The notes beneath the pieces were generated by a model. The model was not told the DNA's origin. It worked only from the letters and a program-made list of their open reading frames with translations, and searched no databases. DNA of 64,000 nucleotides from Stylophora pistillata (lineage: Eukaryota): assembly GCF_002571385.2 (NCBI RefSeq), contig NW_019218336.1:6207-70206 (forward strand), given 5' to 3'. Shown piece by piece: positions 1-27,400 of this stretch. Within the stretch, counting starts at the first letter, position 1. The number at the start of each line of letters is the position of its first letter. The position numbers and the translations under genes were made by a program.

Positions 1-229
1 CGAACGTGCAAAATGCTGAGGTTTAGGAAATCTTTATAGCTATTTTAACGAATAGTTTGCAGGATAGAATTCGAGCAGGAGGACAAGCCCGCTATTTCGA
101 AAAGTAAAGTTTTAAAATTTTCTCTTTACATTCCGCATGCTTTCGGTTGCGCCTCACTGCCTTTTTAACTCGCATTTATTAATTTCCACAGTGGTTGCGG
201 GTTCATTTATAAGCCAAATAGTGAGGGCT

Positions 230-830: not shown

Positions 831-1815
831 CCGCCGAAAAAAACTTAACAGTCAAATCAAACCTTGACAATGAGCAAACAAACGGAGCATAATATTATGG
901 AATACACGTTGAAGAATAAACAGCTTTTGAATCGCGGTACTGACAATTAATTACAACAGCAATGAAAAAAAAAAAACTTCAAGACTTTCGGAATTCGTCG
1001 AAACCGGAAAATGAAAGCGGTGTACTTCTTTTGTAATTGGCATAACGTTCAAAAGCTTTAGGGAAACTATTTTGAGGAAACTTCTTGCAGCGTGAAAGTA
1101 GCTTGAAGATTATGAAAAACTTGGCTTCCAATACATGTGTGTAAAAATTATTCAAGGCCTTGTACTTAAGAATGGCTGTCTATGGTGGAGGGCAAAGAGT
1201 GTTTGTGCCGAAAGAGCATATTGCGAGCTTTAGGCCGTTTTGGTGAAATTATCCGAAAACTTTTCAACATCTTGATGTTTGGAAAGAATTTTTTTTTGTA
1301 ATGGCAACTGAGCTTGAAAGATCCTTACGTTCCCAATATTTCCATTTTAAAATCCACTTTCGCTTTCGCTTCAAGCTTTAAAATGTACTCCCTTTGTTCT
1401 TCTTCATTACCTCCAATACCTGAAGGTAAGGCTGATAATTTTTTTTTTATTATTGTATCCGTTGTCGATTTCTTACGAGAATGTATTATTTGCGTGGCTT
1501 CACACTTATCGCTATTTTCTTACCCAGTTCTTTTAAAAGTAATATTCCGAATCTCACCAAAATTTTAAAACCAAGAAATATTGGGACAGAGAATCAGATA
1601 AAAACCAGAACATGTCGATTTCATTGAACTTTTTTTTGGCTTGGGGCAGAAAGCATTGAGGTTTCCTAATGTAGTTTCTTAGAGCCATTTGTTCACGTAT
1701 TACTCAGTTCTACTTAGGATCTAATTTCGTTTATTATACAAATAGAATTATCCAACCTATTTCACTATAACCTGGATAATTCTTGAAATTTACTGGATAT
1801 GTGATTAACTTTTAG

Positions 1816-4305: not shown

Positions 4306-4369
4306 GAAACTTTGCATAGCTCCTCAAAGGAGAAAACCACTTTTACTTTAACAAACTCAGGCTTTTAGT

Positions 4370-5480
4370 AAGGCAGCGATGGTTTAATGTTTGGCGTTCT
4401 TTTCCCTTTTGACCTTGATTTCATGTGTTTCGGTTCGTTTTCGTCAGGGCAACTTTAACCTTTTTGCTTTGTCAACGAAATGGAATAAGGTAATGATTAC
4501 AGGCGTAAGAAAATCTCCCCCCTCTTTCTCTCAAAAACGACGAATTTCGTAGTAAGACCCCGCCCCCGCCCCTCTGATCCCCCCACCCCATCCAATACCT
4601 TTTTTGATGCTTTGTTCATGTGTATACGTTCAACAATATATTCAGCTGGAAATTATACCTCCCTCTAAATGATTAATTCTGCATCATCCAAACTAGTCAA
4701 GGTCAGCTTTTTTGCTGAGATTTTTCCGGGTATTACAGAAATAAAGTTGAATGATATGAATGATAAAGATGAATGCTTTCATCTCTAACATGTACATTAG
4801 AAGAGAATTTATCAATTGCCTAAGAATAATTTAAGAAAAAAATTATGCAGTAATTCAGTGATCTACATTGAGTAGTCAGTGGATTTTAGAATTGTTTGAA
4901 CATATTTATATAAAGTTCCACTTACATCTTGTGTGTAAAATCTCATTTCTATTTCCGCTTGTGTCCATTTGAAAACAGCTTATGATAAGCGGAGCTCTAT
5001 TCGGAGATTTAAGGGCTGATAATTTGACGCAATCCAGGGGCTAACAGTCTAAGCTCAGAGTAAATTTCGGGGTTGGAGAAATTTACCAATAGTACTGAGA
5101 AATAATCTTTCCCCTTGCATCAAGGGAAAATGCTTTAAAGTCAGAAAGCATACATGAATTGTTGCCCTACGTTAAGTTGGGCGAGATACGTTCGACCTCC
5201 AACAAGACAAACCTTTGATGTTCACACTAGGGAGAGGTTCATTTTGGTTCACTATGTGTTATCTCTTCTAAACCCCTAGGGAGGGTGCTCTGATTGACTG
5301 GAGGTGACATTGGTTTTGACCGTAGATTACACCAAGTACTCACAGTTTATGTTTTCTCACACAATTCGCTCACCATTTGAGCTTTTTCTCGGAGCCTTCG
5401 TTGACATTAACAAAAGAAAAAAGGGTCTAAGAATTTAGTAATTTTTTGGTATCTGAAATTCACTCAAGACAATCGCCCTT
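4370..5480. repeat. Duplicated 3' flank of the receptor, fused to a copy of the METTL7 3' UTR/flank
   Basis: 4370-5120 resembles 25934-27145 (e.g. tttcggggttggag.aatt.acca..agtact.agaaataatcttt). 5161-5480 resembles 33922-34260 (gttgccc.acg..aagttggg ... caacaagacaaacc ... ccctagggagggtgc). Confidence 0.75.
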
Positions 5481-8400
5481 TCCTCCCTAGTTTTGTACAA
5501 ATGTCCCCTGCGAGTCACTACATGTGTTTGTGCAAACTGCCACTAAAAACTGAAAATACTCTCAAAAACTGGAAATGAATAAATCAAAATGCAGCAAGGT
5601 CTACTGACATACATAAGACATAGCTTATTACAATACACTGTTCTCCCGCTCGTACATGGCTTGATTAAGGGAACACTGAGAAACAGTTTTAATTTTCTCG
5701 TCGCCACGAAATGTTTCAGTAAATGTTCGCTAAGCTCTGCTCTGGTAAACAGACATAATTTTCTCAATGAAGTGCCGCAGCCATTTCTGTATATATGACA
5801 GACCTTGCTAGTGGTTCAGCAGAGGCTGAACTTGAAGGCGACCTCGCATGAATTCCTTGAGGCACTTTGGCCAGCTGCTTGTTGTTTAGCAAGCATTCTC
5901 TTCGTGTCTCTCTACCTTGTCTGGATTTGGATCCACAATATGGGAGTCCTTCCCTTCGAAAATGTACTCCTTCACGATTGTGGATTTTGCAAACATTTTT
6001 TAACATTTTTAAAAGTTTTCACAGAATAACACCTCCCAAACCTTCAGTTCTTCGATTTTTACAAGTGTAGAAGGAATTCTATCTTTTAAAGAAGCTCCTG
6101 GAATATCGCTTTCAAAAAGAACAACATCTGCAAGATCACTCGAAGAAAAGGACGCCAAGATGTTCTAAAATGCCTCGATTTCAAGTTTCTGAACACTCGT
6201 CCCAGTTTAAAACCGCGGGACAGCCATAGTTACGAACTGTTTGCACAGTCGGTTTGGGTTCGTTGATAATCCCGTCAGGGAATGCTACAAAATTTACTGT
6301 GCCACTATGTTTCCCAAGATATTTTTTGTCACATGCTTGGTTACATGCTTCAAGGGAACGACGCAAACTGTTATAAACCCGTCAAATCTCTACACATATG
6401 GGTAAGTCAGCTAACAGATTTTTATGATGTGCTTTCGTTTTCAAAGTATCATGTTTATTGTGTGTGCAAACCGCTCACTTCCTGCATATATCTCAGAAGG
6501 TTGATACGCAGGTAGATATACACAAATAATTGTAGTTTAATAAGTCACAGTTTAAGTCTGGAGAGAGTAAGAAACAATTCTTGGCTTTACGTTTCACACC
6601 ATAGACAAATCATCGTTGTAAGAAATGAAATAAAAAAAACATCAACGAAAAAAAAAAAAAAACCAAACCAAACGAAAGACGAAAGCAAAAGGCGGGTTGC
6701 AATATCGGTCGAAATTAAGCGCAGTTAGAATCTTATTAGAACATAGAAAGGTATCGAAGAGCTTTCATGAAAGTTGTGGAGCAGAGACACAGAACTCCCG
6801 CCTTTGTTTTAATTTAAAATAGAGCAAATATAGAACCTTGACAGTGCTCTTTTCTGTACAACTACATCTCATGTTTTTCCCCACACTTCTTTCGTGCTCT
6901 GGCCGCTTCTTGCGCGCTTCACAACAGAACTCCTCAAGAGCACAGTCAAGGCCTCTTTATTTGTTTAGTAACCATGAATTTACCCCTTATTAATTATGCA
7001 TAGCCAGTAGGCTCGAACAAACTTGCTTGTCGTGGACTTAAAGTGAAACTTAAAAAATATCATCTCTTTTCCATTTTTGTGTTAAGGTAGATATGGTTAT
7101 GAATGTACTTTGACGCCGATTCAGCTTAAGATGCGAGTAAAACCGACATTTGCTCTCACAAAACTTGGCATTTGCATTTTTATGACGTCTTCAGATCAAG
7201 GCTGTTCAGGCACAAATGCTAGAGATAAGAAAGACTGAATGCAGCCTATTTAGAGTTCATATTTTCGTTTCGTCGACAAAATGGTTTCCTAATCAAATTG
7301 TATACGAGGGATTCTAGGACAGTGATTATCATTTTTCGAGAGATGTTTTCCGTAAATAACATAAAGGGCGACCAAACACCAAATTTGTTTCCACAGTATA
7401 AATCTCCTTTTCTTACCTATAACAAAGTCGGAAAATTTAAAGTCGCGTCTAATTTAGTAATTGTTTTCATGAATTTTCAAAGATCCCAGAATTTTTCACG
7501 ACTGGTGAATGACGCGAATAACAATTCATGTATAGGAAGGTCTCCGTCGCTTTGTAATGCGTTTGTACGTCAAGGATCGATCGATTTCCCGTCAGTCTCT
7601 CGCCTTTGTATACTTTTGTGTCTGAGAATGTAGTTTCTGAGTCACATTTATTAGCCGCAAATTTGCTCATCTGTCAGTTGTTCATTTGATGGGCTCCTCA
7701 CGTGCTTCTTGCGTGACTCAATCTTTTAACCTTCAGCCTTTGGCTTTGTTTTCTTCTGTGAGACTTTTAACCGCTCATTTTTATTTCGTTCATGGTTCTT
7801 CCTTATTGTTCGTTTTTGAGGAGGCAGGGAATGTACCCGCACAAGATTCAATTTCTTTGTACTTCTCTATTGCTAGTTTGTGCTCTCAAATTTTCAAAAA
7901 GCGCGTCGACATCGATTAGTCTAGCTTTCGATTCCTTAGCTGATTTGCGGTAATTAGATAGCGGCGTATTATCTGATTAAAGTAGTCTACAAGGAGACAC
8001 CAAAATGATCGCAATGTTCGCCCTTACGTTGTATCGTACGCTTTTTGGGCATTTTCCCTTCTCGAGGTGAGCTTGTAAGAGTCCGATAGAGTTCTTTCTC
8101 CGTAGTGTAAGGGGTTTCTTGACTTCATTTTATCGAAGTTTCGCTTTCGGCACACAATCGATTTCCTCCCTCTCCACGTCATAGTCCGATAGCTGCGGAT
8201 GCTTCGGATTCATAAAGTCACTGTCCGAGTTTGTGTCTCCAGATGACATGGCTTTCTTTAGGAACTTTATGGAAGTTCCTCAATGTTTAAAGAACGGGAA
8301 ATTCCCAAACGTATTTGGGAACGCGTCTTTAAGCATTTCATTTCAGCCTTGTAGCGTGGTTCCGGGATGACGTAACAACCTTCCCGATCCAGGTTCCAAG

Positions 8401-10346
8401 ATGAATGGTCGTGAACATAAAAAATTAACCGTTTTTTACTTCTGTCTGTCTTACATGTCAACTCAGGCATGTGATAGTCTGGACATAACAATACCGTCCC
8501 ATTAATTTATTTTGATAAAACGCACTCAGGATAAGGATCGTTACTCGAGCTGAAGTTCAATATATGGCGAGCGTCCATTCAGAAACTATCGCCAACAATC
8601 CCACTAACACAACGTCTCTTACGGCACTACAAGAAATATCCGAGCCAATCAAACACAGCGCCTGCTTTTGCGTCTGTGTTGACTTTCTGCTCACCCGTGT
8701 GCGCGTTTGAGTTATTCAGTCACACCTGATTTCGCCCTGAGGGAAATCGAATTGGTTTCTATGATTTACCACTAGATCGTGGCAGAATTTGTTGTTTCTG
8801 AATAAGATGTCTTTAATGTGTCTTCCGAAACAGTGGTAATGGACACATGAATCAAATTCAGTTAGCCGCTTTAACTCTTAGGTTTCTTTTAATTATATGA
8901 TAGGCATTACCACCCTTATGCAATTTCAGCGCTCGCACTTGCGCAAACTTGTGACTGTCTTGTTGTGTCTCGCAGGCAAAACGTTTGTTACAAGTATAAA
9001 GTGCAGACTGAGGCTTACTACACTGTTACATCAAGGAAAACATACACACACACAACAACCAGTTGTGGATGGTTTGGTTGGTTCAGATGTGACTCAACAA
9101 GGTCAGTAAATATATTAAAAAAAAACATGCTCCTAACATTAAGCAGCTTTTATCTGAGCCAAAAAGGAAATATCAAATGATGAGTACAAGTGCGTTTTGG
9201 GATGCCAGATGGTAACCTTACCTTTCGAGAATTTGACTGCAGACTGCCATTTAAAATTTTTTTTAGCGAGCTAGCCATAGTCCCTTACCCAGACCTTCCG
9301 CGGCCAAGTGGTGGTGAGGTCCCTACATTTTATTAAACACGGTATGACCTGGGAACAAGATTAACTTAGGCACTTATCTACAACTTAATAGTTCCACTTG
9401 TCCTTTTTCCATCTAACCGGTTTGCCTCTCGCCAGTTGAGATTGGTATCAATTCTACTCCTTTAAGTCCATTTGTTTACGTATTACTCATTTTCATTCAT
9501 CATTCAAATACAATTATCCAGCCAATTTCATTATAAGCTGAGTAATTTCTTTCTTGAAATTCGCTGGATATGTGGTCATCTTCCAGACCCAAAATAGTGT
9601 ACTACGGTGTCCAAAGAACCAGAAATGTCAACGTGAAAATAATTTACTGCTGCGGTGGATGGAGGAAAAGTCATTCAAGCTCAAGAGAATGCACGAAAGG
9701 TACATTACATCACAGATTTTGCTTATTCGCCTCATGGACCTCCAAACTAGTTCGTGGTAATGTCACATCAAAATTTATTCAATTAAATTTTCTTTTTATA
9801 TCTTTTTAGCGATCTGCTCTCAAGGTTGTAATTCCAATCACGGGTCTTGCGTCGCACCCAACCAGTGCCGATGTTCTTCGGGATGGACTGGGTCTACCTG
9901 TAGCGTAGGTACACAGTCTTATCAACGTCTTCCTCGTCATCTTTACCATCGTTATCGCGGGCGCATATCGTTGTGATAAACCATAATGTCCTCCAACCAG
10001 TTTTCATTTGTCCTAAGACGAGATCAAATTTCGAGATCAAATCGGGTGACCGAGAGCCCATGTAGGCCTTATCCGTAGGTAATTTATGAATAGAGCATAG
10101 AAAACTATTTTTGGTGGCTAATTCACATTATCACCTCAGTTGGTAAAGCCAATTCCAGGGCGGAGTAATGCTTTATGAACCTCGGCAGGGTTCATGTATG
10201 TTTTGATGGAAAGCAAATAGACGCTGCTTAGGTGTACAAGTAAACAAATTTGCGACGTATGATTGCTTTCTCCTTGATCCTTTTAGGATCTCATAAAATT
10301 GGATTGCTATAAAATTAACTTTAGTCTCTTCTACGGATCTTTTTTC

Positions 10347-10357
10347 NNNNNNNNNNN
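10347..10357. other. Assembly gap (11 N)
   Basis: Run of N. Confidence 1.
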
Positions 10358-12952
10358 TGAGGAGAAATTAGGGTAGAAGTGAAGTTGGTAGTGACAGTCT
10401 CGTGTTTTTATGCGTAGATAAAGATGAATGTAATACAAATAATGGCGGATGTGACCAAAATTGTGTTAATATTCCTGGCTCATATCGGTGCAGCTGCAAC
10501 ATTGGATACACCCAGCATAGCCACAGCTGTCAAGGTATGATCTCCATCATGACGTTTAGCTATGCAAATTTTAAATTACCTTTGTCCTAAGACGGGATCA
10601 AACTCCGGAATCAAATCGAGAGACCGAGACCCCATGTAGGCCTCATTCGTAGGTAATTTATGAAAAGAGGTTTAGAAAACTCTCTATGGTGGCCAATGCA
10701 ATTTATAACATAACCAAAGTAAATCGCGCGCTCTGATTGGTCAATTTAGAAAACTCTCTATAGTGGCCAATGCAATTTATCTCAGCACCTCAGTTGGTAG
10801 AACCATGTCCATTTCAAAAGTGTTGGGTCTAACTGGGCCTTTTTCGGGTAAGGAGCCGCCACCTTCCGTTGGTTAAATTTCACAGTTTTGTCATCATTCT
10901 CAAGAGAGATTTCTAAATTTTTAACAACACTGGCGATGCCAAAACTGAAGTTCCCCTCATTTTTCCATTTGATGAAGAGGTGCCTTTGAATTAATGGCCC
11001 GCCTTGATTAGCAGTGCTATCTGAGGAGCCAGGGGAATAAGGATTTATTGTCATTGTTATTGTTAAATAAACCTACTATTTAATTGGTTTCATAAAGGAG
11101 AAGGCAAATATAAAGCACCCATAAGCAATGATTCTGTTTTAAAACTAAAACCATCTCCATCATACACACTCCTCGCTTTACTTGTAAGCCAAGTTGTCTA
11201 TGCGTAGTCACCGTCTGTGTCTCATTTTTAGACATTGACGAATGTCAGACGTTATTACCGACACCTTGCAGTTGTGGTGTTCCTGGAGAGCCCTGTGGTG
11301 CAAACTGCGTCAACCTGGTTCCTAGCTACAAGTGTACCTGTGCACCAGGATTTCAGCTCCGAAGTGGTGGAACCATCTGCGATGGTAATGTTTAAAGAAA
11401 CTGTTACTGATTTGTCAAATGGAAGAGAATCGAAGAGGGCTTGCTCAGGGTGTGGGTAAAACACAATTTAATGCGCTTTTGATCATTACATGTTAAAAAT
11501 CGCACTATAAATTAATAAGTTATTATAAAATCATTATAATGTAAAGGAAATACTGCCAGTGTCTTGAGTCTCTGTGTGATACAAATATGTATTACATGTA
11601 TTTGTCTTTAAGATGTCAACGAATGTTTAAAGGCCAATGGAGGATGCCCACAAACATGCCATAATCAACCTGGAAATTTCTCATGCGGATGCTATAACGG
11701 CTTCAACCTCATCAGCGGGAACAATGGTACTTACTGCGAAGGTGAAATAACTTACTTAGTACTAGTTTTTCAGGAGATGGTAAGCAAAAACTTTAGTGTC
11801 AGGGCAGCTTGAAAGTGATCAGAATAGCAACTTGCCAGCCAGCCAATGGTTACCCCCTCTATTTGACTCATTGCACAGTACCACTGTTGTAAGACTGACA
11901 GCAATATTACTCTCTGTTGTCAGATATTGACGAATGCCTCTCAAGTAATGGTTTCTGCACCCACCAGTGCGTGAACACTGAGGGATCTTATCGCTGTGAA
12001 TGCCCCGTTGGGTTTGTCTTGGATTCAAATGGAAGATCTTGCTCGGGTATATTACCCCTAGTGAACATGCCTGCAACTTTATTTGAGACAGCGGCGGAGC
12101 ACAGGCAAATGTTTTTTCTTTCTGTCATAACCACCTATTCAACAAATGGTAAACACCACAGCGTGCACTACTGAGTTACGAGCGCAAGCGGGAGGTTGCT
12201 AAGCACGAAAGAAGGGTAAAAGCCCGCACTTTACTTTGGTTATGTTGTAACCCTTACATAACACTTGCGGTCAAATTCTCCATTTTGATCAAGCAATCTC
12301 TACAGGTGTTGAGTTGACCGCTTCTTATCAAAACCGCACAGGTAAAAAACCGATAATTTGCTCATGTTACAGATCACGATGAATGTTTGGCAGGCCAACA
12401 TAGCTGCCAGCAAAAGTGTATTAATTACCATGGAAGCTTCTACTGCTCTTGCAACTCAGGATACGAACTCAACGGAGACAACACGACTTGTTCAGGTAAG
12501 AGGTCATATCGTCTCTTTATCATGGCCTTCTCATAGTCTTAGGTAGCACTTCTTTCCATTACCTCTCTGGCTAGTTCACGAATTAAGGAAACAATTATTG
12601 CTTTGAGCAAATGTCACTCTTCCATAGTTATTTACTTAATTTGTTGTTTGCACTATCCACGTACACCTTTTCGAATGAAATTCATTTTACAGATGTGAAC
12701 GAATGCACCCCTATTCGTGTAGAGAACCTTAACAAAACGGTCATCCCAGCAGGATGCGATCAAATCTGTCATAATACACCAGGAAATTATACTTGCAGCT
12801 GTGACCTGGGATATCAGCTTCTATACGATGGAAAGCGGTGCAAAGGTAAGAGTGTCTGATAAACCTTTTGTAACACTGTGGAACATAAACACAACTCCAC
12901 TTCATTTGTAACCTTCCTAAAAAAATGGTCGTCTAGGATGACTGTATATTTG

Positions 12953-13140
12953 ACAATTGGTTCATGCCTTAGCGTGCACTATCGAGTTATGGAGCACGCG
13001 GGAAGTCTGGAGAGGACGAAAGAAGCGTAAGAGCTGCCCGAGGCAATAGCCGAGGGCAACACTAGCTTCTTGAGTGCTCTCCAAACTTCCCACGTGCTCC
13101 ATAACTCGATAGTGCACAGCTGAAAGCATGAACCAATTGT
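12953..13140. mobile_element. ~190-bp palindromic (MITE-like) element
   Basis: Arms caattggttcatgc..gtgcactatcgagttatggagcacg and cgtgctccataactcgatagtgcac..gcatgaaccaattg. Related copy at 49411-49600. Confidence 0.7.
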
Positions 13141-13522
13141 TTTAGAACATAGCCGGTGGAATTGTGCATCAAATCCGACGCGAAAAACGGACAACAATAT
13201 CAAATTGAAGCGAATCGTGACGGCGCTGATGCCGAGTCTTTTTCTGTCGTTTTTCTCTTTTTCTGCCTTTAATAATTCTAGCCCAAGGAAAAAGGTCGAA
13301 AAATTGTCTTCGTTTTGGGACCAGTAGGCCGAGTCTCTGTTTGCATCCATTATTGTCGCGACATATATTATTTTTTCCCGCGCTAACAATATTCGCTCGC
13401 ACGAAAAAAAAAAATTTCTGGCGACGCGATTTGCTGACGCTATCAGCGTGCACTATCGGGATTTTGAGCACGCTTAAGTACACTGAATTTGATTTGCGCG
13501 GCTCTGCTAGCTATGTTCTAAA
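13141..13522. mobile_element. Small TIR-bounded non-autonomous element
   Basis: Terminal inverted repeats tttagaacatagc and gctatgttctaaa. Confidence 0.5.
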
Positions 13523-14169
13523 AGTTTGGAGACTCTAGTATCTATTCTACAGACCTGACTATGGGCCGAATAAACCATCGACCTATTGACCAACCCACCA
13601 GTCAGTTTACCTAAAAAAAATGTTGTGTATGGATCGAGTTCTGCAAAGTTACAGATCGCTGATCATTTTTGTCGTACCTCACAGATGTAAATGAATGTAA
13701 TACAGGAGTCCACTCTTGTGAACATAAGTGCCACAACACACCTGGCTCTTATGGCTGTTCATGTTTCTATGGTTACAAACAAAGGGCCGACATGCGAACC
13801 TGTGAAGGTAGGTTATAACTGCTACCTCAGAACAGATTCAGCTGATAAATGGTTGTTTTCAGAGTCCATCAGCGAGTACGAGACCTCGAAATAAATGTTA
13901 TTGAGCAATGGGTACAAAAGAATTAGGCCTCCAGGAATGTGTAGACATCTGCAATTACCGAGCTTTGAAAATTTTTCCCCTCGCCCTTATTTAGGACTTC
14001 CTTGTGAGAATATAAAAGCCCCACCTCATGGTCACATGACCTGCAGCGGATTTGTCACAAATGAGACATGTTTGTTTACGTGCGAGGATGGATATGAAAT
14101 GCAAGGTTCGGAGAAAAGAACTTGCCTCAATTCTTCAAAGTGGGACGGACAGCAAACATCCTGCAAAGG

Positions 14170-14180
14170 TAACAACAATG

Positions 14181-14221
<41 letters not shown>

Positions 14222-15497
14222 TTAACATTTATATTGCGCAAATTAACATGTAGATATGATCAAATGCGCATCACAACCCTTTTCGGGGGACTTTGGCCGG
14301 ACTGCATCAGCAGTTTACAAACAATCGAAGGAAACTTATTTGAAGATGCCCCCTCCCCCCCAATTTCCAGTAAACAGACCAGACCACATCACAGTAATCT
14401 CGTGAGTGGGTTCTTTAACGTCCCCTGCCTAACCAAATAGCTGCAGGTGACGGGACCTACGGTTTATTCGTCCTTATCCGAGAAGACTAGAATGTCTATC
14501 CATTTCTTGATATCATAGAAAGGTAGCGCATTCTCCTCAGTAAAAAAATACCAAAGCTTAACGAACTTTTTGCATACCGATCCAATGGCTGAACACTTTT
14601 CAGATTTTCACTATAATATGTGGTGGGAAGGAAGTACAAACATTTCCCTGAAAAATACAAGTAATTTTACAATCAACATGAAAATGACTGGCCTAGTTTT
14701 CTCATTCGTAGCAGATTTCAGCAGGGTGAGTATTCAGTCTTGTCTTGTAGCTAGCACAAAATAGAGTAGAGAGTTCAATTTCATCTTAAGGTTACCGATA
14801 CCCAGACACCCTGGAAACTAAAGAAAACCATGCATCGCTTTGATTTAGCACAAGAAATTTATCAAAATGGCTTAGTTCCAGATTATTTACGGAAAAATTT
14901 TGTTAAAGGTTGAGCAGTTCACAACAAGAACACAACGGACATTGTGCCACCAATGTATATTGTCAAAAGAAATTAATAGTTTTAAGCGGCAGCCTTTTAA
15001 CATTGTTTCATACGAGATAATTTTGAATATAGTTTGAATAACTGTGTGCGTGTCTATGTATATATTTTGGAGAGCTATTTAGTGCAACGTAATGAATCGG
15101 TTTGGGCGTCGGAATCATATCGGAGATCACATGAGGCTCCAAAATGGAGGGTTTCAACTTTATCTTAAGGCTGCAATGTCCTCGTGAGAATTACAGGATA
15201 ATCCTTAGTCCTGATTTGTCTTTTAGTTACTCACCAGATACTTTTCTCAGCAAATCAAGAGTATTTTCCATGGATCAGTCGAGCTTACTTTATACATACA
15301 AGCGCTTGGCGAGAAGCTTTCACTATCGTCGTCCTTATCCGAGAAGACTAGAATGTCTATCCATTTCTTGATATCATAGAAAGGTAGCGCATTCTCCTCA
15401 GTTATTTTAAGACCTTGAGTGTTGGTCCGGCTGGGGCTCGAACCATCGACCTCGACCTCCCGCACAACAGTCCGGCGTTCTAACCAATTGAGCTAAT
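14170..15497 (-). mobile_element. tRNA-derived SINE with Nin/Deu-like central domain and (ATT)n tail, interrupted by an insertion
   Basis: Minus strand reads TAGCTCAATTGG (A box) ... GGTTCGAGCC (B box) ... ctcggataaggacgaataaaccgtaggtcccgtc ... ggacgttaaagaacccac (resembles the Nin/Deu domain, recognised from memory) ... (ATT)n at ~14180-14220. Partial related copy near 59950-60195. Confidence 0.75.
14543..15325 (+). repeat. Near-identical copy of 17661-18442 (exon end, full intron, exon start) flanked by a 74-bp direct repeat
   Basis: About 3 differences over ~780 bp. Flanks 14468-14541 and 15329-15402 are identical. Confidence 0.9.
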
Positions 15498-18400
15498 GAC
15501 AGTTAAATGGTCAGCAGCTTCTAAGACTTCTCAGTTTTCCCTCTCTTTTCTTTCCGTGATATCTTTTCTACATGTTTGCTTCTTTCTCTAGAAAATCCTT
15601 TTGTTTATCATCTCCTGTTTCACGATCATTTTCTACGATAGAAATATCTTTTATGTGTGAAGAGTTCGTCACCGGCACCATTCAGATGTTTCCACTTACG
15701 CTGACATTTCATTAATACACGCGTTATTGTTAATCCCATAACTCAACACAGTGAAAAGTTGTGGTCGACTACATCCACCAGAGAAAGGCAAAGTTCTTCT
15801 CCCTTGTCACGTGACGTTTGGATCCACCTGCACACTTGACTGTATAGAAGGATACGTTTCCTTTGACAGCAACATTGCAACTTGCCGGCTTACAAATTCC
15901 AGTGACGTGGCATGGGACATAGGAAACTTTACGTGCAAAGGTACGAGGTATCCCGAGAAAATGGGCATTGATTGGAGAATTCATATCGTAGCAAAAACGT
16001 GCTCTGAACCCCTGTTACCTTCTTGGAAAACCTTACTCGGAGCAAAAAAAGTACACGACATATATGTAAAGACGAATTAGTTGTATCACTAAGTTAATGT
16101 TGATGATGTAAACTGGCCACCGTAAGGAGATTCTTGTAAAAGCTGACGCTTCGAGCGCTAGTCTTTCGTCAGCGAATACGGTGGCGAGTTTGTACTATCA
16201 ATTTAGTTCATTAAAACGAATAATCTTGTAATACCCCTCACAGACGCAGCACCGCAGTTTCTTCAGAAACCTACCCTCCTTATATATTTGAAGAATTTGC
16301 TTGATCGACTTATTCCCGAACGCCTATGCCAGTGCTCTTAGGGTACTGAATTTTTACATTTAAAGGAGACCTTTTAGTTAAGATGTCATTCCTCCGCGAA
16401 ATATTCAGTAATTTGTTCTTTTACCCGTTTGCTAAGTATCGTAATTTAAGTCTGTTTTAATTCAATCTAGAGATAAATCTTTGCAAGCCCAATCCCTGTC
16501 AGCATGGTGGAAGATGCATTCTTATCGATTCACAAAAATATTCATGTGATTGTCAGGATACTAGGTATGAAGGGAATCTCTGTGACCGAGGTGTTGTTAC
16601 ACTTCCTGATTTCCCAAAACTAATTCCTGGAAGATCTTCGGAAGATCTTTCATTACTTGCGAAACCTGACAATGTATTGACTGTTTTCTTCGATGCAACC
16701 CTGAAAATGACCTTCCATCCGAAGAGAATGATGATTCACTATCCATCAGATCAAGCCCAGTTTGAGGTGATTGGACACGAGTCTGGAGTTGGTATAGTGT
16801 CATATGACTTCACTGGGATGGACAAGCATAGTTTTGCGTCTCCCAAGGATAGCTCAGTCTTTGTTGGTTTGAACATATCAAATGTAAACAGTATCTTCAC
16901 CAAACTGGGCCTTTTGAATGGCGAAGTACCAATCGGATTCCAAACGAAGAAACTAGAGAACTTCCCATGTGGGCTAAAAATAGCCTACCACTCCTCCTCT
17001 ACCCCGCCAAATGATGTTCTCATCGAGTCAGGGCCTGTTCACATTATTACAGCCGACAACAAAACAATTCCTCTGAGTCTTGTGGGATACAATTTCGATT
17101 CCCCTAATCAATCGGGTCAAGAATCAGACTTGCTGAAAACACTTATCACTCAGACAAGCATCACCAACGCGGGCCCGATAGGCCAAACATCAAGCAAAAT
17201 GTGCTCCTTTAAGCCAACAGCAGAAGCTTTGATTGAATTAATACAGGAAGACGCCTTTCCAAAGTCTTTCATGCGATACTTGACTGACCTGCTACCATTA
17301 TGGATACGAATTACGGTTAAAGACGACAACACTTTATTTTCCGCAGAAAACATTCGAGCCGACCTCGTTCAAATCGCAAGCACGCAGAATACTTACCTGG
17401 ATTGCAAGTTTCCTCCCCTTAATGTCCCCACTGCAATGGTCATATATCGTCCGAAAGTCACTTTTACCATCTCCACTGGAGGAAGGAAGATTTCTTTGCC
17501 CAGCAAAGGTTGTTGTTTTGCAACCGACCCTTGCGTTAGTGCAGTGTTCCTGGCGTTATCCGAAAAAGCTGGCAAAGAAATTGGCAAGATGTGCGTTTTG
17601 AAGGAGTTGACTGATAATGGCTGGGATATCCTGTTAACATCTTTTGGTTTCACCGCTCCCAAAAAATACCAAAGCTTAACGAACTTTTTGCATACCGATC
17701 CAATGGCTGAATACTTTTCAGATTTTCACTATAATATGTGGTGGGAAGGAAGTACAAACATTTCCCTGAAAAATACAAGTAATTTTACAATCAACATGAA
17801 AATGACTGGCCTAGTTTTCTCATTCGTAGCAGATTTCAGCAGGGTGAGTATTCAGTCTTGTCTTGTAGCTAGCACAAAATAGAGTAGAGAGTTCAATTTC
17901 ATCTTAAGGTTACCGATACCCAGACACCCTGGAAACTAAAGAAAACCATGCATCGCTTTGATTTAGCACAAGAAATTTATCAAAATGGCTTAGTTCCAGA
18001 TTATTTACGGAAAAATTTTGTTAAAGGTTGAGCAGTTCACAACAAGAACACAACGGACATTGTGCCACCAATGTATATTGTCAAAAGAAATTAATAGTTT
18101 TAAGCGGCAGCCTTTTAACATTGTTTCATACGAGATAATTTTGAATATAGTTTGAATAACTGTGTGCGTGTCTATGTATATATTTTGGAGAGCTATTTAG
18201 TGCAACGTAATGAATCGGTTTGGGCGTCGGAATCATATCGGAGATCACATGAGGCTCCAAAATGGAGGGTTTCAACTTTATCTTAAGGCTGCAATGTCCT
18301 CGTGAGAATTACAGGATAATCCTTAGTCCTGATTTGTCTTTAGTTACTCACCAGATACTTTTCTCAGCAAATCAAGAGTATTTTCCATGGATCAGTCGAG

Positions 18401-21400
18401 CTTACTTTATACATACAAGCGCTTGGCGAGAAGTTTTCACTAACGTTTTACGCCAACAGTGTGGTGGCAAAGTCACAGCTCGGAGGTAAATATAAACAAT
18501 GCTTTCATTTCATTTTATTTTGTTTTCGTTTTGAGTACCTCAGTTTTTGTCTTGTTGTTGATCCTGATGTCTCCCTTCTCCTTGTTATCGTTCCTTTCTT
18601 TTCGGTTTTGACTAGTTCAGCTTTTGCCTTTTTCATGATCTTGATGGTTTGTTGCTAATTCATTGCATTTGCTTTACTAACAGTAGCCTCCTTGACAGGA
18701 CCACCCCTTCTCTCATCGGAATGCCACGCTCAGCAAGGATTCACCTTTACCCTAGATCGAGAAAGCGAACCTTTTAAGAACAGCAAATTTTTAACCATTG
18801 TTAGACCCAATGGAGGCATAAAATATTTGCAAATCTACTACTCTATTAACGGTGGAGAAGATATCGCAGCATAGGATCCTAACAACAGCTTGAGATCTTT
18901 GGAATATCAGACGCAAGACATAAAGAGGGTCTTTTTAGATGTTCAGATATTTGTTCCTGAATTGCAAGAAACAACTCAAAGGTGGACTCCATATTTGGAA
19001 GAGACACTCGTTAATGTCATCAAAGCTCGAAATTTGCTCTCCTCATCCTCAGATCTCTTGAAAATAAAACAACTGGTTGCAGAGATTGACGACGATCTTG
19101 ACAAGATACCGAGAGTCCTTGATCTCCTCATAGCCAGGTCACAGCCGTACAGGAATCGTTCAAACATTGAAAATGCCATCAGTCGCCTTCTCATACTCAA
19201 ATCAGACCTTCCAATGACCATCTCTCTGGTATTCACTCAGTCGTTCATTCGGCAATCTTTTGCTGGTGTTCGTTTTGCCCTTGTGGCACAGATTTGTCAC
19301 AAAAGACTCTGTTTCACCAACATCAACTGTAATGTTTGGTTCCTGACCGAGAACAACTGTTTAACCAATAGTTGTGGTATAGAGAGTGGTGTAATCGTCG
19401 AAGGAACTGCCTTGAGAGACACACCTCTTGGTACTACAATATCATTCCCTGCCCGAGGACCACTGAGAATGCTAATAAGCCGTAAAAATGAGCCACACCA
19501 GACTACATTTGAGTGTTTCGTTCGATTATTAGGAATGACCAAAAACACAAGCATACGAATGGTTGGAAATGAGCTCTTTTTTTCCATCTCGGGACCCATT
19601 TTTGGAAGATTCGAGTCGCTTTTAAATGTTACAACTGAGTTTGAAAATGTTGTGGAGTGGAAATCCTTACTGTTTGAAGTGAGGGGCACCATGAACAAGT
19701 CATCAGGTTTTCATATGATGCTGGAGAGTAAGATTACCAACGAGAATACTCTTGCAGCCAAAGAGGCAACTAGCAGATTGAGGAAGGCGAAGGCGGCCTT
19801 CAGTGCTGCCAAAATTAAAGCAGATGCAGTCAGGAAAATTCTAAAAGAAAAACAGACGATCGCCGAGCAGCTGAGAGGTGAAAAGGAAAGAGCTGCAAAG
19901 GATCTTCGTGTGGCACGTTTGCAATATCAGTTGGCAAAGCTGCGTTTCAATAACACGGTCTACCTTCATCGACATGTTCTAAATCCTGTGTGTGAAATAA
20001 GAGAGTGCAACTACACTTGTTTGAACGGCTGTGTTCACCCCACCTTCTGCCAGGACCCGATAAACATAACTTATCTTGAGCGATACTGTTACACTGTTGA
20101 CAAACCAATGACAGTCAAAGTTGTGGAAAGCAGCACTAAAAAAAAACGTAGTTTCGTTTTGCAGACGTATCATACCGTGTATACTGGAAACTGTAATTAT
20201 ACTATGAAGGGATTTCCGGCTGGAACGCTTGCTGGAGGCTTTATTGGCAGTGTGTTTGGACCCAAAGGAATAGAACTCGGAGCGGTTATTGGGGCATTGA
20301 TTGATGCGATTGGTGAAGATGTTGTTGGAAAGTTGAGCAAGGAAATATTTGGCTGTTCTAACACTTACGAGACAGTTCGTGGTGAACCGCGGCTTGTGGA
20401 GTACGAACAGAAGAGTTTCAAGTTGAAAGCTGTAGTCAAGATGATCAAGGAAGTTAAGTGCTCAGGCCAACAAGAGAAAACGAAACCTGGTGGATTCGGT
20501 CCTCCTTACCCCTGCTGCAAGCGATATGGATGCCAAACCAAAGTCATCGATCCTCTTTGTGTCAAACACAACGAGGATTGCTTTATGTCAATGACTGAGC
20601 TCAAATTTACGTTTGATGCCTTGAATGAAACTTTCCAATATGCCTTCCTGAATCTTAGGGAATCCGTTGACAAGGTTAAAGAGGCTACAGCTGTTTACGA
20701 GAGCGCCAGAATTCGTCATGAGGCAGCACTTAACGTGCTGCAAAAAGTAAAATCTTACACAGAGCAGAGCCTATCAGCGGTAAAAATTGTCAATGCTTCC
20801 AGGCTTCATGTTCGCCGAATCGTTGACTTTGGATTGAAAATATCCCAAGCTTTGAACGCCACCAATTCGAAAGGTAATAAAACTGTAGATGTTGGAGACC
20901 TTACATATTCCATAACCACGGCTTCAGAAGATACAAAAAAGATTCTTTTTCGATGCAACGTAAGCTCTACCAATAGTCAATCAACGTTGGTCTCTTTTGT
21001 AGTTGACTTCGATCAAGTCGAACGCTCAATCAGTTCTGCTTCCAAGACGATCCTTAGCAAGCTGTTTGGTGGAACATCCTCCAGAAAAAAGCGAAGTGCT
21101 CCAGAGGAACAGAGTCACTTTCAAAATTACACATATATAAAGACCTTACATATCAGCTTCACTGATTACCCTTATGCATGCCAGTTTGCCAATTCAACGT
21201 ATTTGTTCCTGAACTCCATTCTTCACTCACTGGATAATCTTATTTCAGCTGCTAAAGGACTGGATGAAGAGCTATCTTCTGGGTTCCAAGTCCTTGACAG
21301 AATGACAAACACCATTCGTGGTAGCAGCTCATCCAACAATTTGTCGTGTAATTTCAACATTTCCAACAGTTCCTCGAGTAGTTCGTGTCAGACTACCTCG

Positions 21401-24400
21401 TTCGTGTCAGACTACCTGGAGATGATAGAACTCCTTAAAAATGAGAGTTCCCAAGTTAGAAATGACTCTTCACAATCTTGGAATGAAACTTTTGAGGCCT
21501 GGAGGGTATTCCTCGAGGTATTCACCCATAATAGCGAATTCCAAGAGTGTTCAGGTGCCATTGACTGTCTCGAATACCTTTTTGAAGGGTTAAGGGAATT
21601 TTACGAATTTGAAAACAGTCCACAGGCCCTAAGAATAAAAGACGCACTTCCTGAGCTAAAAGACATTTTAATGGCATTAACGTCTGAAGCCTTGACAATG
21701 CCAGAAACTGAAAACACGTTCCAAAAGGCTGTTTTTTAGCTGAATGAAATCCGTGACGATTCCGTCTTGTGTGGTGGAACGCCATACATAAACTCTTCAC
21801 CTCAAAAGGAAATCATTGTCCTGGCCGGAGAAAGTTTATTGTTGCGTTGCACTGCTAAAAGTGAAGCTGAGATAAAGTATGCTTGGATGAGGAATGATAA
21901 GCTCGTTAACGAATCACTGGATGGAATTTTCTATGTAAGCGCTATCAGCAAACAACACGAAGGTGCTTATCTCTGTGTCGCTTCAAACAATAAAGGCAGT
22001 TCATTTTCTAACGTCACGATCGTCCAAGTTCATAACAAACCCAGCATCACTTTACATCCGCAACCACAAAGGGTAATTGTTGACAGTGAAATGCCTGCGA
22101 CATTCATTTGTAATGCGACGGGTGAGCCAGCACCTACTTTTCAATGGTTTTTTATAACCATCAATTTGACTGTTGCAAAAGTAAACGAGACGAGGCCTGT
22201 GTTACACATGCCTCGACTTCGCCAACATCAAGATGGTTATTACTACTGTGAGGCATCCAACGAGCATGGTGTGGCAATCAGTCAGAAGGCCCGGCTTGAC
22301 GTACTAGGCTACTCTGTGGGTCTTCCCAGGCTGCTTTTGGCCATGAATATTTCCTCTCCGTGCTGGCAGGCATCAAAAGCCTCCAACAGTTCTGTGCACG
22401 AAGCCCCGTCATGCAATTCCAGCTTCATGAAAGCTCTGTCGTCATCAGAAAACGAGACCTTGACCGATAACATTCTTCTTTCCTTAGCAAGATCACTTAA
22501 TTTGTCCATTGAGTTTATCTCCGAGCTTGAGTACGGCTCAAGAAACGATCACATCGCCACCATAGCATTTATATTAGATATCGATAAAGAGGCTTGGAAA
22601 CAATTCAATTTTACACGGCCCATGCATATAGTTGAAGCCGTCGCTGATGTTGGTGCTAATCTGATTAAGAAAGCGGAACTGCTCAATTCTAGCATACTGA
22701 ACAAGACTTTTGAGGTGCCTTGGAACAACACCGTTGTTTATGGAGATCCTGGAAGCCTTCTTGTTTACCCTCTCTCTCCGAAATGTCCCGATGGACAGGC
22801 CCTCCACGAAAATGGTTACATTTGTGGTAAGCATAATATCGACTTTAAACCATCTCTTATAAATTGGCTCAGAATTAGAGCTAGAGACAGAGTTGGAAAA
22901 AGTTCTGCTAATACCTCATCCCAAACACTACAGCCCTGTCTCAAACTGCAAACAATTTTAGCCAACGTTGTGGAATCTGGTGGGATCTTTCACGACTTAG
23001 ACTTCAGCTTTAAGTTCAGTTGTATTCGAACTTATACTTACTGACTGTTATAAAAAGCCCCTCTCTGATGTATTTTTTGAGGCTTTATTTGCTTTACCCT
23101 CTTAGCGTACGTGTTAACCATAAGACTTGCTTCATAAAGAATTTCTGAATTGTCTGATCCACTTTTTTAACATGCAGTGTCTTTATCTCCTTAGCAAACT
23201 GTCCGGCTGGCTCATCATATGTAGAGGAGAATGAAACATGCGCAGAATGTCCGTTTGGAACTTACCAGCCTGTGCAAGGACAAACAAGATGTATTTCCTG
23301 TGGCAAAAACCTCACCACAGCCTTCAATGGAACAGTGGAACAATCAGATTGTATTGGTAATATCAAATATATATATTTTAACTCGGTTTAATTCAGGTGA
23401 CATTCTTGGCTTTGTAAAGCAAAAAGTATTCCAGCAAGTGTAATATATTGTATTTCACTTCCGTCAACCGAAAAATACCTTCTGTGGTCTTCCCTGCTTC
23501 AAAATAGGCACAGTGAATGTTAAAAATGTCTGAACATCAACGGATTTTTAGAAGCTTATAATGGAGATGAAGGAATATTACAAAAATTTAAGAAGTCAAA
23601 ATCAACCAATCGGGTTAGTAAAAAGCTATTCGTGAAATCAATCTCTGATGAATAAAATCCAAGTATCTCCGTTGTTTTCGTCAAAGTAGGCTTACAATTG
23701 CCCAACCTGCTTTTGTATTCCGGGTTTTCTATTTCATTTCTTACTTCGTTCGAAAGCTCACCGACTCTGAGGTAAACATACCATTAATTTCACTTTTTTC
23801 TCTATCCTGTACTCCTTCAGCTGATTGTCCAGCTGGTTCCTACAGCGCAAAGAACAGAACATGCTTTTTGTGTCCGCTTGGCATGTACCAACCATCCCCA
23901 GGGAAGTTAGTTTGTCTTTCTTGCAGCAAAAACCAAACAACAATTAACACTGGTACTGTGGGAGAAATGCACTGTATTGGTAAGTTAATACTCGTCACAT
24001 TTTGAGTTCATATGGTGGGCGATTGAAGATATAATTTCTGGCCACAAAACGTTAGCAAATTGGCTGGCATGTACACTTCCTATTCCTTTCATGTTACGTT
24101 TTGTCAAGAGAGGTTTAAGTCCTCTTTTGGTTGTGTGTAGTACTGAATTCACCGAAAGAGGAAAAACGATAAAGACGAAATCACGATTGGTTGTAGTTTT
24201 AATTGATTGATTCAAAGGAGGTGCAGGCTTACGAGACAATTCTCATTACTTCTGACAAAATTACTCCAAGAAAAAAGCCTCTCCGGCAGAAGAAACGTCG
24301 ACAAATTATAAGAGAAAGGGAAGAATTTTTTCCGCAGTTATGTAGTAACTAACGATGGGTATTTTTTCATCTTTGTTGTATTGACTGTTCCGAGTCTTCA

Positions 24401-27400
24401 GTGAACTCTGAAAATTGTAATTGGTATATCGCAAAAATTATCGTGGGGAATTGTTTAATCATTCCTTGAGCAGCGATCTCTCCTGCCGGCTCGCACAGAT
24501 CTGTGAACCGGATATGCACTCTTTGTCCGCTTGGTTCTTACCATCCCTCAGATGGTTCGTTGGATTCCTTCCCTGTGGACAAGGTTTCACCACAGCCTCG
24601 TCAGGAGCTGTCGGTGAATACCAGCGTAAACGTAGGCTTTCGCTGTCTGCTACAACATTTACGACTAGTTTCAAGACTTTGTGGATCAAATCATGTAGAG
24701 TTTAAACGTTTACAAGATTGGGAACTGCTATTTTTACTTTAAACATGACAGAGAAAAAAAACAGTTCCATTCAAAAACCAGTTACTGAAGACAAGACAAC
24801 CATTTCTACACCATTGGCGACATCGCGAAATGTTGAATTGAAGGTAGGTAGATTTTCAGATTTTTGGACTCGCAAGAAGACAACAAGGCTATCTGGCAGT
24901 TTTTCTTTTAATGTTCTCGGTAAGAAACTGAGATGTTGAAACTTTTCAAAAGCAAATGGTGAGCTGGCTAACAAGCTAAGGAGAGGCTCATTTGGAAGCT
25001 GCTTGTCACTGGTACTTTGTAGTTATTTGTCGCGCGCCATTGGTAATTGCCAGTAGGCTCCTTTTCCTATCTCTTTCATTTCTCTTACCAGACAAGCACC
25101 AATGAACAGCCTAGAACGAATACTCAAGAAGAGGCTAAAAACCAGGAAAATGCTGAAGAGTTACCATGGAAACTTCCCGTCATCATTAGTGCAGCATTAC
25201 TTGCAGTGTTAGGTAGGCCAAGTACAATCATAAGCGTCTGTCATTCTCTTTTTAACTGATGTCTGGATAATTAAGGAGCAAACGTCTAACACTCTTTCAA
25301 CTGACAGCAAGCGCACCTCGAGTTTCGTTACTCATTTGACCCTTCTGCATAATAGAAACCGCAAACATCCAAAGCTCAGAAAACCGAAACATGTAATTGT
25401 GTACACAAAATCGTCGTCTGTGTTAACACTAGCGATACTCGGCCATAAAGTTTCGTTATTTTCTCTTGTGCCTTGCAGAATCTGATTGTTGAAAGTTGGT
25501 CCGCGAGTTTCTTGTGTCAAACAATTACTTTTTTGGTGAACATTGATACGCGGTCAACCCGTTTTCCTTTGTTTCGATTTTGACTCTTACCGTATTTTAA
25601 TCAGCGCTAGGTGCCATACTCTTCACCCGTATGAGACGGAGACCTAAAATAGAACCAAGGACGGTGCAGTTTGTCAATCCAATCTACGCATTCCCCGATC
25701 AATAGCCACCAAAACGAGCAAAAGGCAATGAACATTCATTAGTGGACGAGCCAGGGCAGGCCACATTCAGCCGTACGCGTGAAGATGGTTCTGGAAAATA
25801 TAACGACTACACTGGGGACTTCAAAACCAAGGATGCTATAAAGAACTTTGCCACTGAAACGATATATGAAAATTTCGAATGGTCCTCAGAAGAGAAAACC
25901 ACATTAAGTTTTACAAACCCATGCTTCCAGTGAGGCAGCCATGGCTCATTGTGTTTGATCAAGAGATCAAATGATCTCTTGCTTTGGTTATTTCTCCCTT
26001 TTTATTTTGAGTAGATTTTCTTTGTTCGCTTAAGTCAGAACACTTTTTCACGTTTGCTTTGACTAGGAGACAGGAAAGCCGGTAAAGTTTAGAGGAAGGA
26101 GTGCAAGTGGGTGGAATTCTCGACAGGTGTAAGAAAAAGATGCCCACGAGTGCAAAAAAAGAGAGAATTCATATGAGAGTTTCCTTCCCTCGGCTCTAAG
26201 TTTAAGAATTTCAAAGTAAGCCCCTACCCTTTCTAATACCTGTTTTGATGCTTCGTTCGAGCGAGTGTTAAGGTTCAGCAATTGTTAATGCTGTCGCATT
26301 AGACTAGTACAGCGGCATTTAGTTTAAATTTTGTTTACAGTCTTCGCTCGGACAAGTGACACATGTTTTCACTGTTCGAGACAAGGTTGTACCTCGGCCA
26401 ACCTAAACGAATTTTTATGTACTCGTCCTATATAAACGGAAAGACTAAACGGAAACGGAGGGCGATGTAACAAGGAACCTAAGGAGTGATTAAAGGTACA
26501 AACAATTCTACTGACGAGGCCGAGCGTTTTTAATCTTCAGGACAGTATTTATTACCGACGGTTACAGCAATATATTCAGCTAGAAAAAATATCTCAATTT
26601 AAAAGGTTAATGCATCGTGCAATCCGTGAATATCTCTCGCGAGATGACGGAGGGGAAGTTTTTTAATTGGAAAACCTTGTCTAAATATATCTTAATTCAT
26701 TTTAACATTATAAATCTTTTTAATTTGTTTTTAAAGTCAAGTTCAGCATTTTTACTGAGGTATTATGTGTGCGGGTATTTTAGAGATAAAGGCATACTTT
26801 CATTTCTAACACGAGAGTAGAATTTATTAATTACTAAAGAATATTATCAAGAAAAAAATTAACTCAGTGGTTTAAGTAGAGCAGTCAGTGGATCTTTAAA
26901 CAATTCTTTGAGCAAATTTAAAATAGGGTTTGGTTTCACATCTTAAGATGTATCTTGTGTGTTAAATCTCATTTCTGTCGCTATTTGTGTCCAAATGAAA
27001 TCAGCTTGTGATGTCTAGGGCTCTATTCAGAGATTAAACGCGGATAATTTGACCCAATCCAGGAGCTAATAGCCTTGGCTTACAAGAAGTTTCGGGGTTG
27101 GAGCAATTCACCAGGAGTACTTAGAAATAATCTTTCTCCTCGCAACGTCGGCCGTATCATGCACAAGGTGATGGCATAGAGGTTGGCCTCCGGAAGAGAT
27201 TTGCGAGTGACAATTGGATTTATAGCACTTTGGTCACATTCGACAGCATCATGTGAACACTGTTGCATGACAGTTTGTTTGGATAGAGTTCGAAAAAATG
27301 TTGATTTAATGGAGTTTTCCAATTATAAACTTCCAGAAGCCAGCTGGAATTCCCATTAAAAGCTGTGCATGCATCGGCAATCGAATGCACTTAGACTTGC

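Follow-up and report, generated by a model that had tools for sequence, protein, structure and literature searches.

The described proteins closest to the gene reported here are those of the CED-1/Draper/MEGF10/PEAR1 and Nimrod group. Nimrods are defined by a CCxGY motif together with the NIM consensus CxPxCxxxCxNGxCxxPxxCxCxxGY (PMC4073527), a YxxL or an ITAM (immunoreceptor tyrosine-based activation motif) in the tail is given as a feature of CED-1/Draper/MEGF10 (PMC8092387), and EMI domains mediate adhesion in NimA and PEAR1, adhesion being a function that a Nimrod with an EMI domain can have (PMC13076899). Here, we analysed a stretch of 64,000 nucleotides from the coral Stylophora pistillata (assembly GCF_002571385.2, contig NW_019218336.1, positions 6,207 to 70,206; hereafter the window, with positions counted from its first letter), which carries a gene that a sequence-only reading had described as an exon-shuffled receptor with CED-1/Draper/Nimrod-like ends around an unfamiliar core. 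This observation was partly confirmed and its interpretation partly supported. Judged by sequence comparison, the gene belongs to an old animal protein family without a name, which is common to corals, jellyfish, feather stars and molluscs, and its novelty lies in the core module and the domain layout, not in its likeness to CED-1.

The coral protein shares with CED-1/Draper/MEGF10/PEAR1 and the Nimrods the organisation of a type I membrane protein, an EMI domain in first position, a CCxG[YW] motif and a NIM-like EGF, and the cnidarian members of its family also share a tail NPxY. The EMI domain split over two exons, with its CGWFGWFRC loop and with CCGGW (W for Y) ahead of the first NIM repeat, was recovered as originally read. 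Searched singly, the two half-exons of the window gave no Pfam match. They align to the N-termini of EMI-bearing homologues, where Pfam EMI was found at full length in all four cases inspected (30.2 and 30.9 bits, above the cut-off, in two and 17.6 bits in another), the fourth being the Oculina orthologue, which matched in this stretch over the whole profile (E = 3.6e-4, 21.7 bits against a cut-off of 25). The EGF that follows had been called NIM-like, which holds loosely: one relaxed copy of the consensus is present and Pfam EGF_PEAR1L falls just under its cut-off, but the strict consensus is not matched and the closest solved relatives of the orthologue's domain are the DOS-type EGFs of Jagged (E = 2e-9). 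Of the two tail motifs proposed earlier, FVNPIY is present and provides the cytoplasmic NPxY, whereas TIYENF lies past an in-frame stop and contains YENF instead of a YxxL or ITAM. The tails of relatives carry YEIL, YDNI or YDDI, single or too far apart for an ITAM. Strict NPxY was found in 4 of 16 relatives with a transmembrane segment and NPx[YF] in 9 of the 16, and the motif also occurs in the paralogue on contig C45.

Unlike CED-1/Draper, the coral protein has a single NIM-like EGF, after which EGF_CA domains, sushi domains, a 1,500-residue core, a furin-type site, Ig domains and ephrin-like repeats follow, so that the ectodomain is not composed of EMI and EGF/NIM units alone but has ~2,000 further residues before the membrane, in sushi domains, the core, Ig domains and ephrin-like repeats. 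It has no ITAM, and the tail motif is missing from molluscan and crinoid members. Because both the ectodomain layout and the YxxL/ITAM feature disagree, the coral protein is, on its domain and motif content, not a member of the CED-1/Draper family, and the family-level likeness suggested by the sequence-only reading was abandoned. Runs of EGF_CA, sushi domains and ephrin-receptor-like repeats are shared with SCUBE/SVEP1-type proteins, which explains the name of relative P0004, but Pfam found no CUB, vWA or pentraxin domain in the coral protein, and the SCUBE and SVEP1 layouts are not known to contain the coral core.

An exhaustive HMMER search returned 86 relatives at E 0.001. Twenty of them were looked up, ten with a species name in their cluster (11 clusters counting both Mercenaria rows), covering Nematostella, Hydractinia, Sanderia, two crinoids, three bivalve species (Mercenaria twice) and a chiton, all labelled as uncharacterised, as HMCN1-like or by a gene number. 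In full-length members, EMI, EGF, core, furin-type site and Ig follow one another in this order, and differences lie at the C-terminal end, which consists of a transmembrane segment with a tyrosine tail, a transmembrane segment with a near-zero tail, fn3 domains without a transmembrane segment, or a Cys-rich domain that we take to be apextrin-like. In one unnamed Joint Genome Institute (JGI) protein the core is joined to cadherins, a transmembrane segment and a Tyr-rich tail, an arrangement presumably resembling choanoflagellate receptors. As the part order recurs in cnidarians (anthozoans, a hydrozoan and a scyphozoan), crinoids and molluscs, a recent exon-shuffled chimera was ruled out. A midpoint-rooted FastTree phylogeny of 61 cores without the tip separated a cnidarian-rich clade from a mollusc/crinoid clade and grouped the window gene with its paralogue on contig C5 and with Oculina (support 1.0). 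Descriptive literature searches revealed no account of the family, although subscription papers and closed supplements could hold one, and nothing was found by accession or locus identifier. The supplements of a Nematostella matrisome paper did not contain the three identifiers or EMI, although other gene identifiers may have been used there. Weak, pattern-based searches of prokaryote genomes, viral contigs and phage records gave only an Ig match, and a suspected apolipophorin-like link was not confirmed, as none of four long relatives found is annotated so. Two relatives have unusual layouts: P0113 from Mercenaria (3,942 residues) contains two complete needle modules of the kind described below, and P0116 (2,728 residues) consists of ~2,500 residues of beta-rich repeats without Pfam match, followed by the base sheet and first coil, its C-terminal end being cut off.

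Splice-site fitting on the window yielded 21 exons (6307-25933, + strand) with 2,740 codons, every intron being GT-AG and 16 of the 20 introns being in phase 1, in agreement with the single gene of ~2,700 residues and the mostly phase-1 modules noted before. The start lies upstream of the extent proposed earlier (8976-25933), in a signal-peptide exon, and the model requires exons 18344-18485 and 24752-24843 beyond those of the earlier description. The deduced order is signal peptide, EMI, NIM/DOS-like EGF, seven EGF, two sushi, one EGF and the ~1,500-residue core, followed by the furin-type site, two Ig domains, two ephrin-receptor-like repeats, a transmembrane segment and the NPxY tail; Pfam recognised an EGF, seven EGF_CA-type, two sushi, one further EGF, two Ig and two ephrin-receptor-like domains on single exons. 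Protein P0005 of Oculina patagonica (2,748 residues, 62% identity over the core) is an intact orthologue that holds the same parts in one chain and corresponds exon by exon to the window.

Contigs of RNA run X9 confirmed the joints 15940-16471, 17843-18344, 18485-18699, 22826-23195, 23356-23821, 23979-24752, 24843-25092 and 25212-25605, six of which were also found in run X16, and one X9 contig end (at 15750, reading the end of the first sushi exon) links the second sushi exon to the first. These joints cover the first sushi exon through the tail in separate contigs; the exons 5' of it rest on the sequence model. The listed joining contigs differ from the window by only 0-1 letters, whereas 25 of the 238 letters in one of these stretches are different in the paralogue, and hence they do not derive from the paralogue. 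RNA joints and full-length orthologues together ruled out two separate genes, and an already characterised family of other function was likewise not found. A DNA joint (15497-18513) was disregarded, as one of its sides comprises only 21 low-complexity letters. The intron after the first sushi exon further contains, followed by a short repeat, a near-identical ~800-bp duplicate (14530-15329 versus 17649-18446) of a segment that runs from the end of exon 14 through its intron into exon 15. Its source is a very recent duplication or, alternatively, an error in the assembly.

The stretch of ~1,500 residues that separates the last EGF from the two Ig domains gave no family match beyond weak glycine-zipper scores: searches of the core against Pfam and NCBIfam returned no match, PDB sequences only Ig matches among those listed (60 of 784), Foldseek against PDB and BFVD no fold match, and the ESM Atlas nothing at 0.9. 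The early core begins with an Ig-like sandwich (residues 1-95 alone match known Ig-like folds, best Z 9.8), its remainder being barely tested by fold searches. AlphaFold prediction of the segment 19262-21100 with 52 sequences gave a predicted local distance difference test (pLDDT) of 82 and a predicted template modelling score of 0.67 (pLDDT 80-82 in five models), and only the tip and the C-terminal end were of low confidence. The modelled chain runs through a beta-meander, an 86-residue helix, a Cys cluster, a ~40-residue strand, a ~50-residue tip, a return strand, a second Cys cluster and a ~100-residue return helix to four strands and a helix that end at the furin-type site. The core is accordingly predicted to consist of a base formed by an amphipathic beta-sheet, a coiled coil of antiparallel helices and a polar beta-hairpin bearing a tip, referred to as the needle. 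In VIA-align, the two helices pair as an antiparallel coiled coil with generic coiled coils as the only matches (best Z 10.8), and the last strands rejoin the base sheet in porin-like partial matches (Z ~5), the base sheet being barely tested by this method. Summing helix and strand lengths gives a needle of ~28 nm, a figure derived by arithmetic and not from coordinates.

Across the family, the strands of the hairpin are predominantly polar. Those of the base show strict alternation and present a single hydrophobic face, and thirteen Cys columns are conserved in the needle. A strict R-x-K/R-R occupies the furin-type position in 62 of 67 aligned homologues. A trimer prediction for the needle scored 0.00, which gives no verdict either way. 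Long antiparallel helical hairpins across a gap are likewise found in colicin receptor-binding coiled coils, Tc toxin A channel helices and phage tail proteins, but these matches comprise the coiled coil only, at background Z 7-11 and 6-17% identity, and the best phage rows reached E 2e-3 or worse with a root-mean-square deviation (rmsd) above 45.

The tip was compared in an alignment of 68 of the 86 matches (at least 530 residues) and four close proteins, of which 50 rows with a Cys-bounded loop and enough core were scored, leaving out short-tip molluscan-type rows without a long hairpin. The bounding Cys pair is present in 96-98% of rows and encloses 10-525 residues; GxxxGxxxG occurs in 24 of 50 tips and an internal furin-type R-x-K/R-R in 12 of 50, in several cases followed by a hydrophobic stretch. 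As control served same-length segments of each protein's own core (Wimley-White interfacial scale), for which four loops above 150 residues were left out (n = 46). By mean interfacial hydrophobicity 34 of 46 tips ranked in the top decile, compared with ~5 expected, and 25 of 46 did so by best window, while acidic residues (D+E) amounted to 5% in tips versus 11% in the core. The tip of the window gene has a weak Gly-zipper match in Pfam (E = 0.001, under the cut-off), and those of its closest relatives are cationic and amphipathic (net +8 to +11). Between two close paralogues the tip is the least conserved part (57% versus 82-93%). Molluscan and cnidarian subfamilies are homologous (hhalign probability 100), and since the former carries a short aromatic turn, e.g. 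KKVWFVKIPYPCC, at the place of the 150-residue hairpin, the membrane-seeking property appears to outlast the sequence. The possible membrane-attack module of the sequence-only reading is upheld on these predictions as a membrane-active candidate within the core. In an anthozoan subgroup (P0019, P0020 and P0024, including Nematostella LOC5519391), the tip contains a repetitive helical insert of ~500 residues, which is flanked by furin-type sites and could be released as a separate peptide.

The intact reading frame implied earlier does not apply to the window haplotype, which carries in-frame TAG stops at codons 1136, 2091 and 2665. At the first, TAG was found in runs X1 and X5 and a sense codon in RNA run X9, X8 being without coverage; at the second, X1 has TAG and X9, X8 and X5 have a sense codon. 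These calls concern the first two stops only and were made from contigs of four runs at 97% likeness, in which rare variants are dropped and the two sites are unphased. TAG in both X1 and X5, two studies, rules out an assembly error at codon 1136; at codon 2091, where TAG occurs in X1 only, such an error is likely excluded, and X1 may be the source sample of the assembly. A fixed pseudogene was ruled out by the sense codons of X9 at both sites and by the ratio of nonsynonymous to synonymous substitution rates against the C5 paralogue (0.34 overall, 0.18 in the EGF/sushi part). From these sense codons and rates, we conclude that the gene works in the species while null alleles segregate, the window haplotype being one of them. 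The third ephrin-like exon, previously counted as part of the gene, is frameshifted and was skipped in RNA contigs of two runs, its counterpart in C5 being intact; unspliced contigs spanning 23950-24780 in X9 and X16 indicate retention or DNA carry-over around this exon.

Genome-wide, six core-bearing copies are located on four contigs, three of them with stops, including two stops in the C5 paralogue and one in a copy on C71, as read from the assembly sequence. Degraded fragments lie beside both close copies, the window gene and C5. The upstream paralogue with FENPAY, noted before, does exist but is degraded, with a frameshifted first exon, no core and a stop in its tail; a first EMI exon was not found. 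Fragments at the end of the C5 contig (62-5515) are 83-89% identical to the 3' exons of the window gene (23879-26006) and 92% to window positions 1-369. The comparison suggests a single tandem array, made up of whole and broken copies, to which both C5 and C551 belong. Three further paralogues of full layout, with tips of 51, 12 and 16 residues, lie on C71 (570000-745000), and one with a long tip and a FQNPIY tail on C45 (930000-960000).

Taken together, we tentatively favour, at close to even chances, a single-pass surface needle that grips target membranes, or greasy surfaces, for uptake; the data bear on its anatomy alone, from which we infer every functional step. Furin would cut between the needle and the Ig/transmembrane stalk in the Golgi, leaving the halves together or allowing the needle to be shed. 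The EMI, EGF and sushi domains would help to recognise or cluster on the target, while the needle would reach through the surface coat and push its hydrophobic tip into the membrane of a microbe, an algal cell or a dying cell. In cnidarian members, the NPxY tail would recruit an adaptor with a phosphotyrosine-binding domain for endocytosis or phagocytosis. Gripping and uptake provide the simplest account because they accommodate the polar rod, the acid-poor membrane-seeking tip, the cleavable anchor and the cnidarian NPx[YF] tail, and the tip diversity, tandem copies and null alleles can be read as marks of a family facing changing targets. A bolder version, which we regard as possible but doubtful, is a new class of membrane-inserting machine, namely an ancient furin-armed surface harpoon that pierces or grips microbial or algal membranes with exchangeable tips. 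Its tips would include the aromatic turn, the glycine-zipper hairpin, cleavable antimicrobial-like ends and the 500-residue inserts, within a fast-turning multigene family that has segregating null alleles in corals.

Several observations weigh against gripping and uptake. NPx[YF] is missing from 7 of 16 transmembrane-bearing rows (molluscan and crinoid tails of 1-75 residues) and the Nematostella models end in fn3 domains without a transmembrane segment, hence uptake signalling is not family-wide. The tip of the window gene itself is near neutral (net -1) and 10 residues shorter than that of its paralogue, 12 of 46 tips are not in the top decile by mean and 21 of 46 fail by best window, and as the scored tips are related, these counts are not independent. 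Alternatively, the low-confidence hydrophobic loop may lie buried within an oligomer or inside a partner protein. With 180 amino-acid changes versus 112 in C5 (p = 8e-5), the window copy shows an excess that fits relaxed selection as well as adaptation, and the null alleles may reflect simple redundancy.

An unlikely alternative is a membrane-tethered killing protein, following the logic and not the fold of MPEG1/perforin-2, which would be anchored by its transmembrane segment, released by furin and permeabilise engulfed microbes through oligomerising glycine-zipper helical hairpins or, once a second cut within the tip has freed them, through ends resembling antimicrobial peptides. MPEG1 is described as a type I membrane protein that is probably shed and whose hairpin tip is hydrophobic and cationic (PMC7593815), and by analogy the cationic amphipathic Gly-zipper tips of the closest relatives, the internal furin-type site in 12 of 50 tips and the conserved site between needle and anchor would suit such a role. 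However, no MACPF or other pore-former was matched by Pfam, NCBIfam or Foldseek: Pfam found no MACPF on any exon or in P0005, the predicted structure is a long coiled-coil and beta-hairpin needle, and the Foldseek search for beta-barrel pore-former folds gave lysenin rows at E 0.6-0.9 only. The long hairpin is unlikely to be a barrel stem, since it is mostly polar and without the strong alternation of the base sheet, and many tips are 10-20 residues or a bare turn, too short to cross a bilayer. Rather improbable is a scavenger of lipid or misfolded protein, whose tip would act like the tails of clusterin or as a lipid picker while the base sheet holds or passes on lipid. Clusterin, which combines a coiled coil and a disulfide domain with hydrophobic tails produced by furin, biased in composition but not conserved in sequence (PMC12527946), is among the few VIA-align rows covering base and needle (Z 7.3, 227 residues aligned, rmsd 10.1). 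The two share an out-and-back path, in which a helix leads to a Cys cluster and a hydrophobic disordered middle (cut by furin in some members) and a further Cys cluster and a return helix lead back, with a base built from both ends; the strict alternation of the base strands and the very long beta-rich region of P0116 ending in the same base and coil also point this way. Yet this likeness, treated as an analogy, is a weak structural score within the reported background of the tool, no clusterin match was listed by Pfam, and the coral protein differs in its beta-hairpin extension, its membrane anchor and its roughly six times larger size, while the hydrophobic face may be covered by neighbouring helices outside the model.

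Still less probable is an adhesion or matrix spacer, a long rod that would join cells or matrix and whose tip would make homophilic or allele-specific protein contacts (self/non-self recognition). The family's flanking domains (EGF, sushi, Ig, fn3 and cadherin), the members without tail or transmembrane segment, and EMI-mediated adhesion in NimA and PEAR1 (PMC13076899) agree with it. It leaves unexplained why unrelated tips are membrane-seeking and acid-poor and why furin-type sites lie inside them. We consider a cell-cell fusogen very improbable, in which furin would expose a fusion-peptide-like segment at the end of a rod anchored in its own membrane. Several tips do show a basic site followed by a Gly/aliphatic stretch, which we take to resemble class I fusion peptides, but no viral glycoprotein fold matched at E 0.001 (BFVD, PDB), and the conserved cut would part the needle from its transmembrane anchor: four Cys, an even number, are conserved between the furin-type site and the Ig domains, so that no linking disulfide is evident.

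It is an open question how cnidarian cells capture microbes and algae, retain them or kill them, for which candidate lists have been drawn from already named families. The locus is of interest for its needle module, ancient and undescribed, and for its segregating null alleles: members in Nematostella and Hydractinia (LOC130623767) permit knock-out, the tip is a small, cleanly bounded unit amenable to liposome tests, and natural stop alleles in a reef coral offer a ready genotype-phenotype comparison.

Table 1. Features of the gene and its degraded upstream paralogue in the window.
Feature	Position	Strand	Evidence
Exon 1, start codon and signal-peptide-like segment	6307-6401	+	tblastn with Oculina P0005 residues 5-33 (62%); GT donor and phase fit
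EMI, two exons	8976-9101, 9587-9699	+	CGWFGWFRC loop and CCGGW; Pfam EMI on homologues
NIM/DOS-like EGF	9810-9908	+	Pfam EGF_PEAR1L E 1e-8, EGF_DL_JAG E 1e-7; best PDB match of orthologue is Jagged
Seven EGF_CA-type exons, all phase 1	10418-13807	+	Pfam, model
Two sushi exons	13995-14168, 15752-15940	+	Pfam Sushi; RNA contig end
EGF, Ig-like beta-sandwich and first part of core	16471-17843, 18344-18485	+	Pfam; AlphaFold pLDDT 79.7; RNA joints
Giant exon: helical segment, beta-meander base, needle, furin-type site, helical domain, two Ig, membrane-proximal domain	18699-22826	+	
Predicted needle: 86-residue helix, Cys cluster, ~40-residue strand, tip, return strand, Cys cluster, ~100-residue return helix	19706-20866	+	AlphaFold
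Cys-bounded, Gly-rich hydrophobic tip loop, 53 residues, glycine-zipper-like	20192-20356	+	pLDDT <50, model residues 314-364
Predicted furin-type site RKKR/S (cut at the slash)	21083-21097	+	Homologue alignment
In-frame stop, polymorphic (codon 1136)	18872-18874	+	Sequencing-run contigs
In-frame stop, polymorphic (codon 2091)	21737-21739	+	Sequencing-run contigs
Two ephrin-receptor-like Cys-rich exons	23195-23979	+	Pfam PF07699; RNA joints X9, X16
Dead third ephrin-like exon, frameshift, two Cys lost	24471-24631	+	Skipped in RNA
Ser/Thr-rich stalk and first half of transmembrane helix	24752-24843, 25092-25212	+	RNA joints, model
End of transmembrane helix and cytoplasmic tail: FVNPIY, stop at 25703-25705 (codon 2665), then TIYENF, FTNPCF	25605-25933	+	Sequence, model
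Degraded tandem paralogue without core	250-4370	+	Sequence comparison

Downstream, the window contains a methyltransferase gene (30218-30781, +), a RAI16-like/KELAA (FHIP-type) gene (36381-43852, -), a gene for a PA-domain transmembrane protein (57342-58088, -), a reverse-transcriptase remnant (58774-59679, +) and an exon of the ribosomal L6 family (62349-62681, -).

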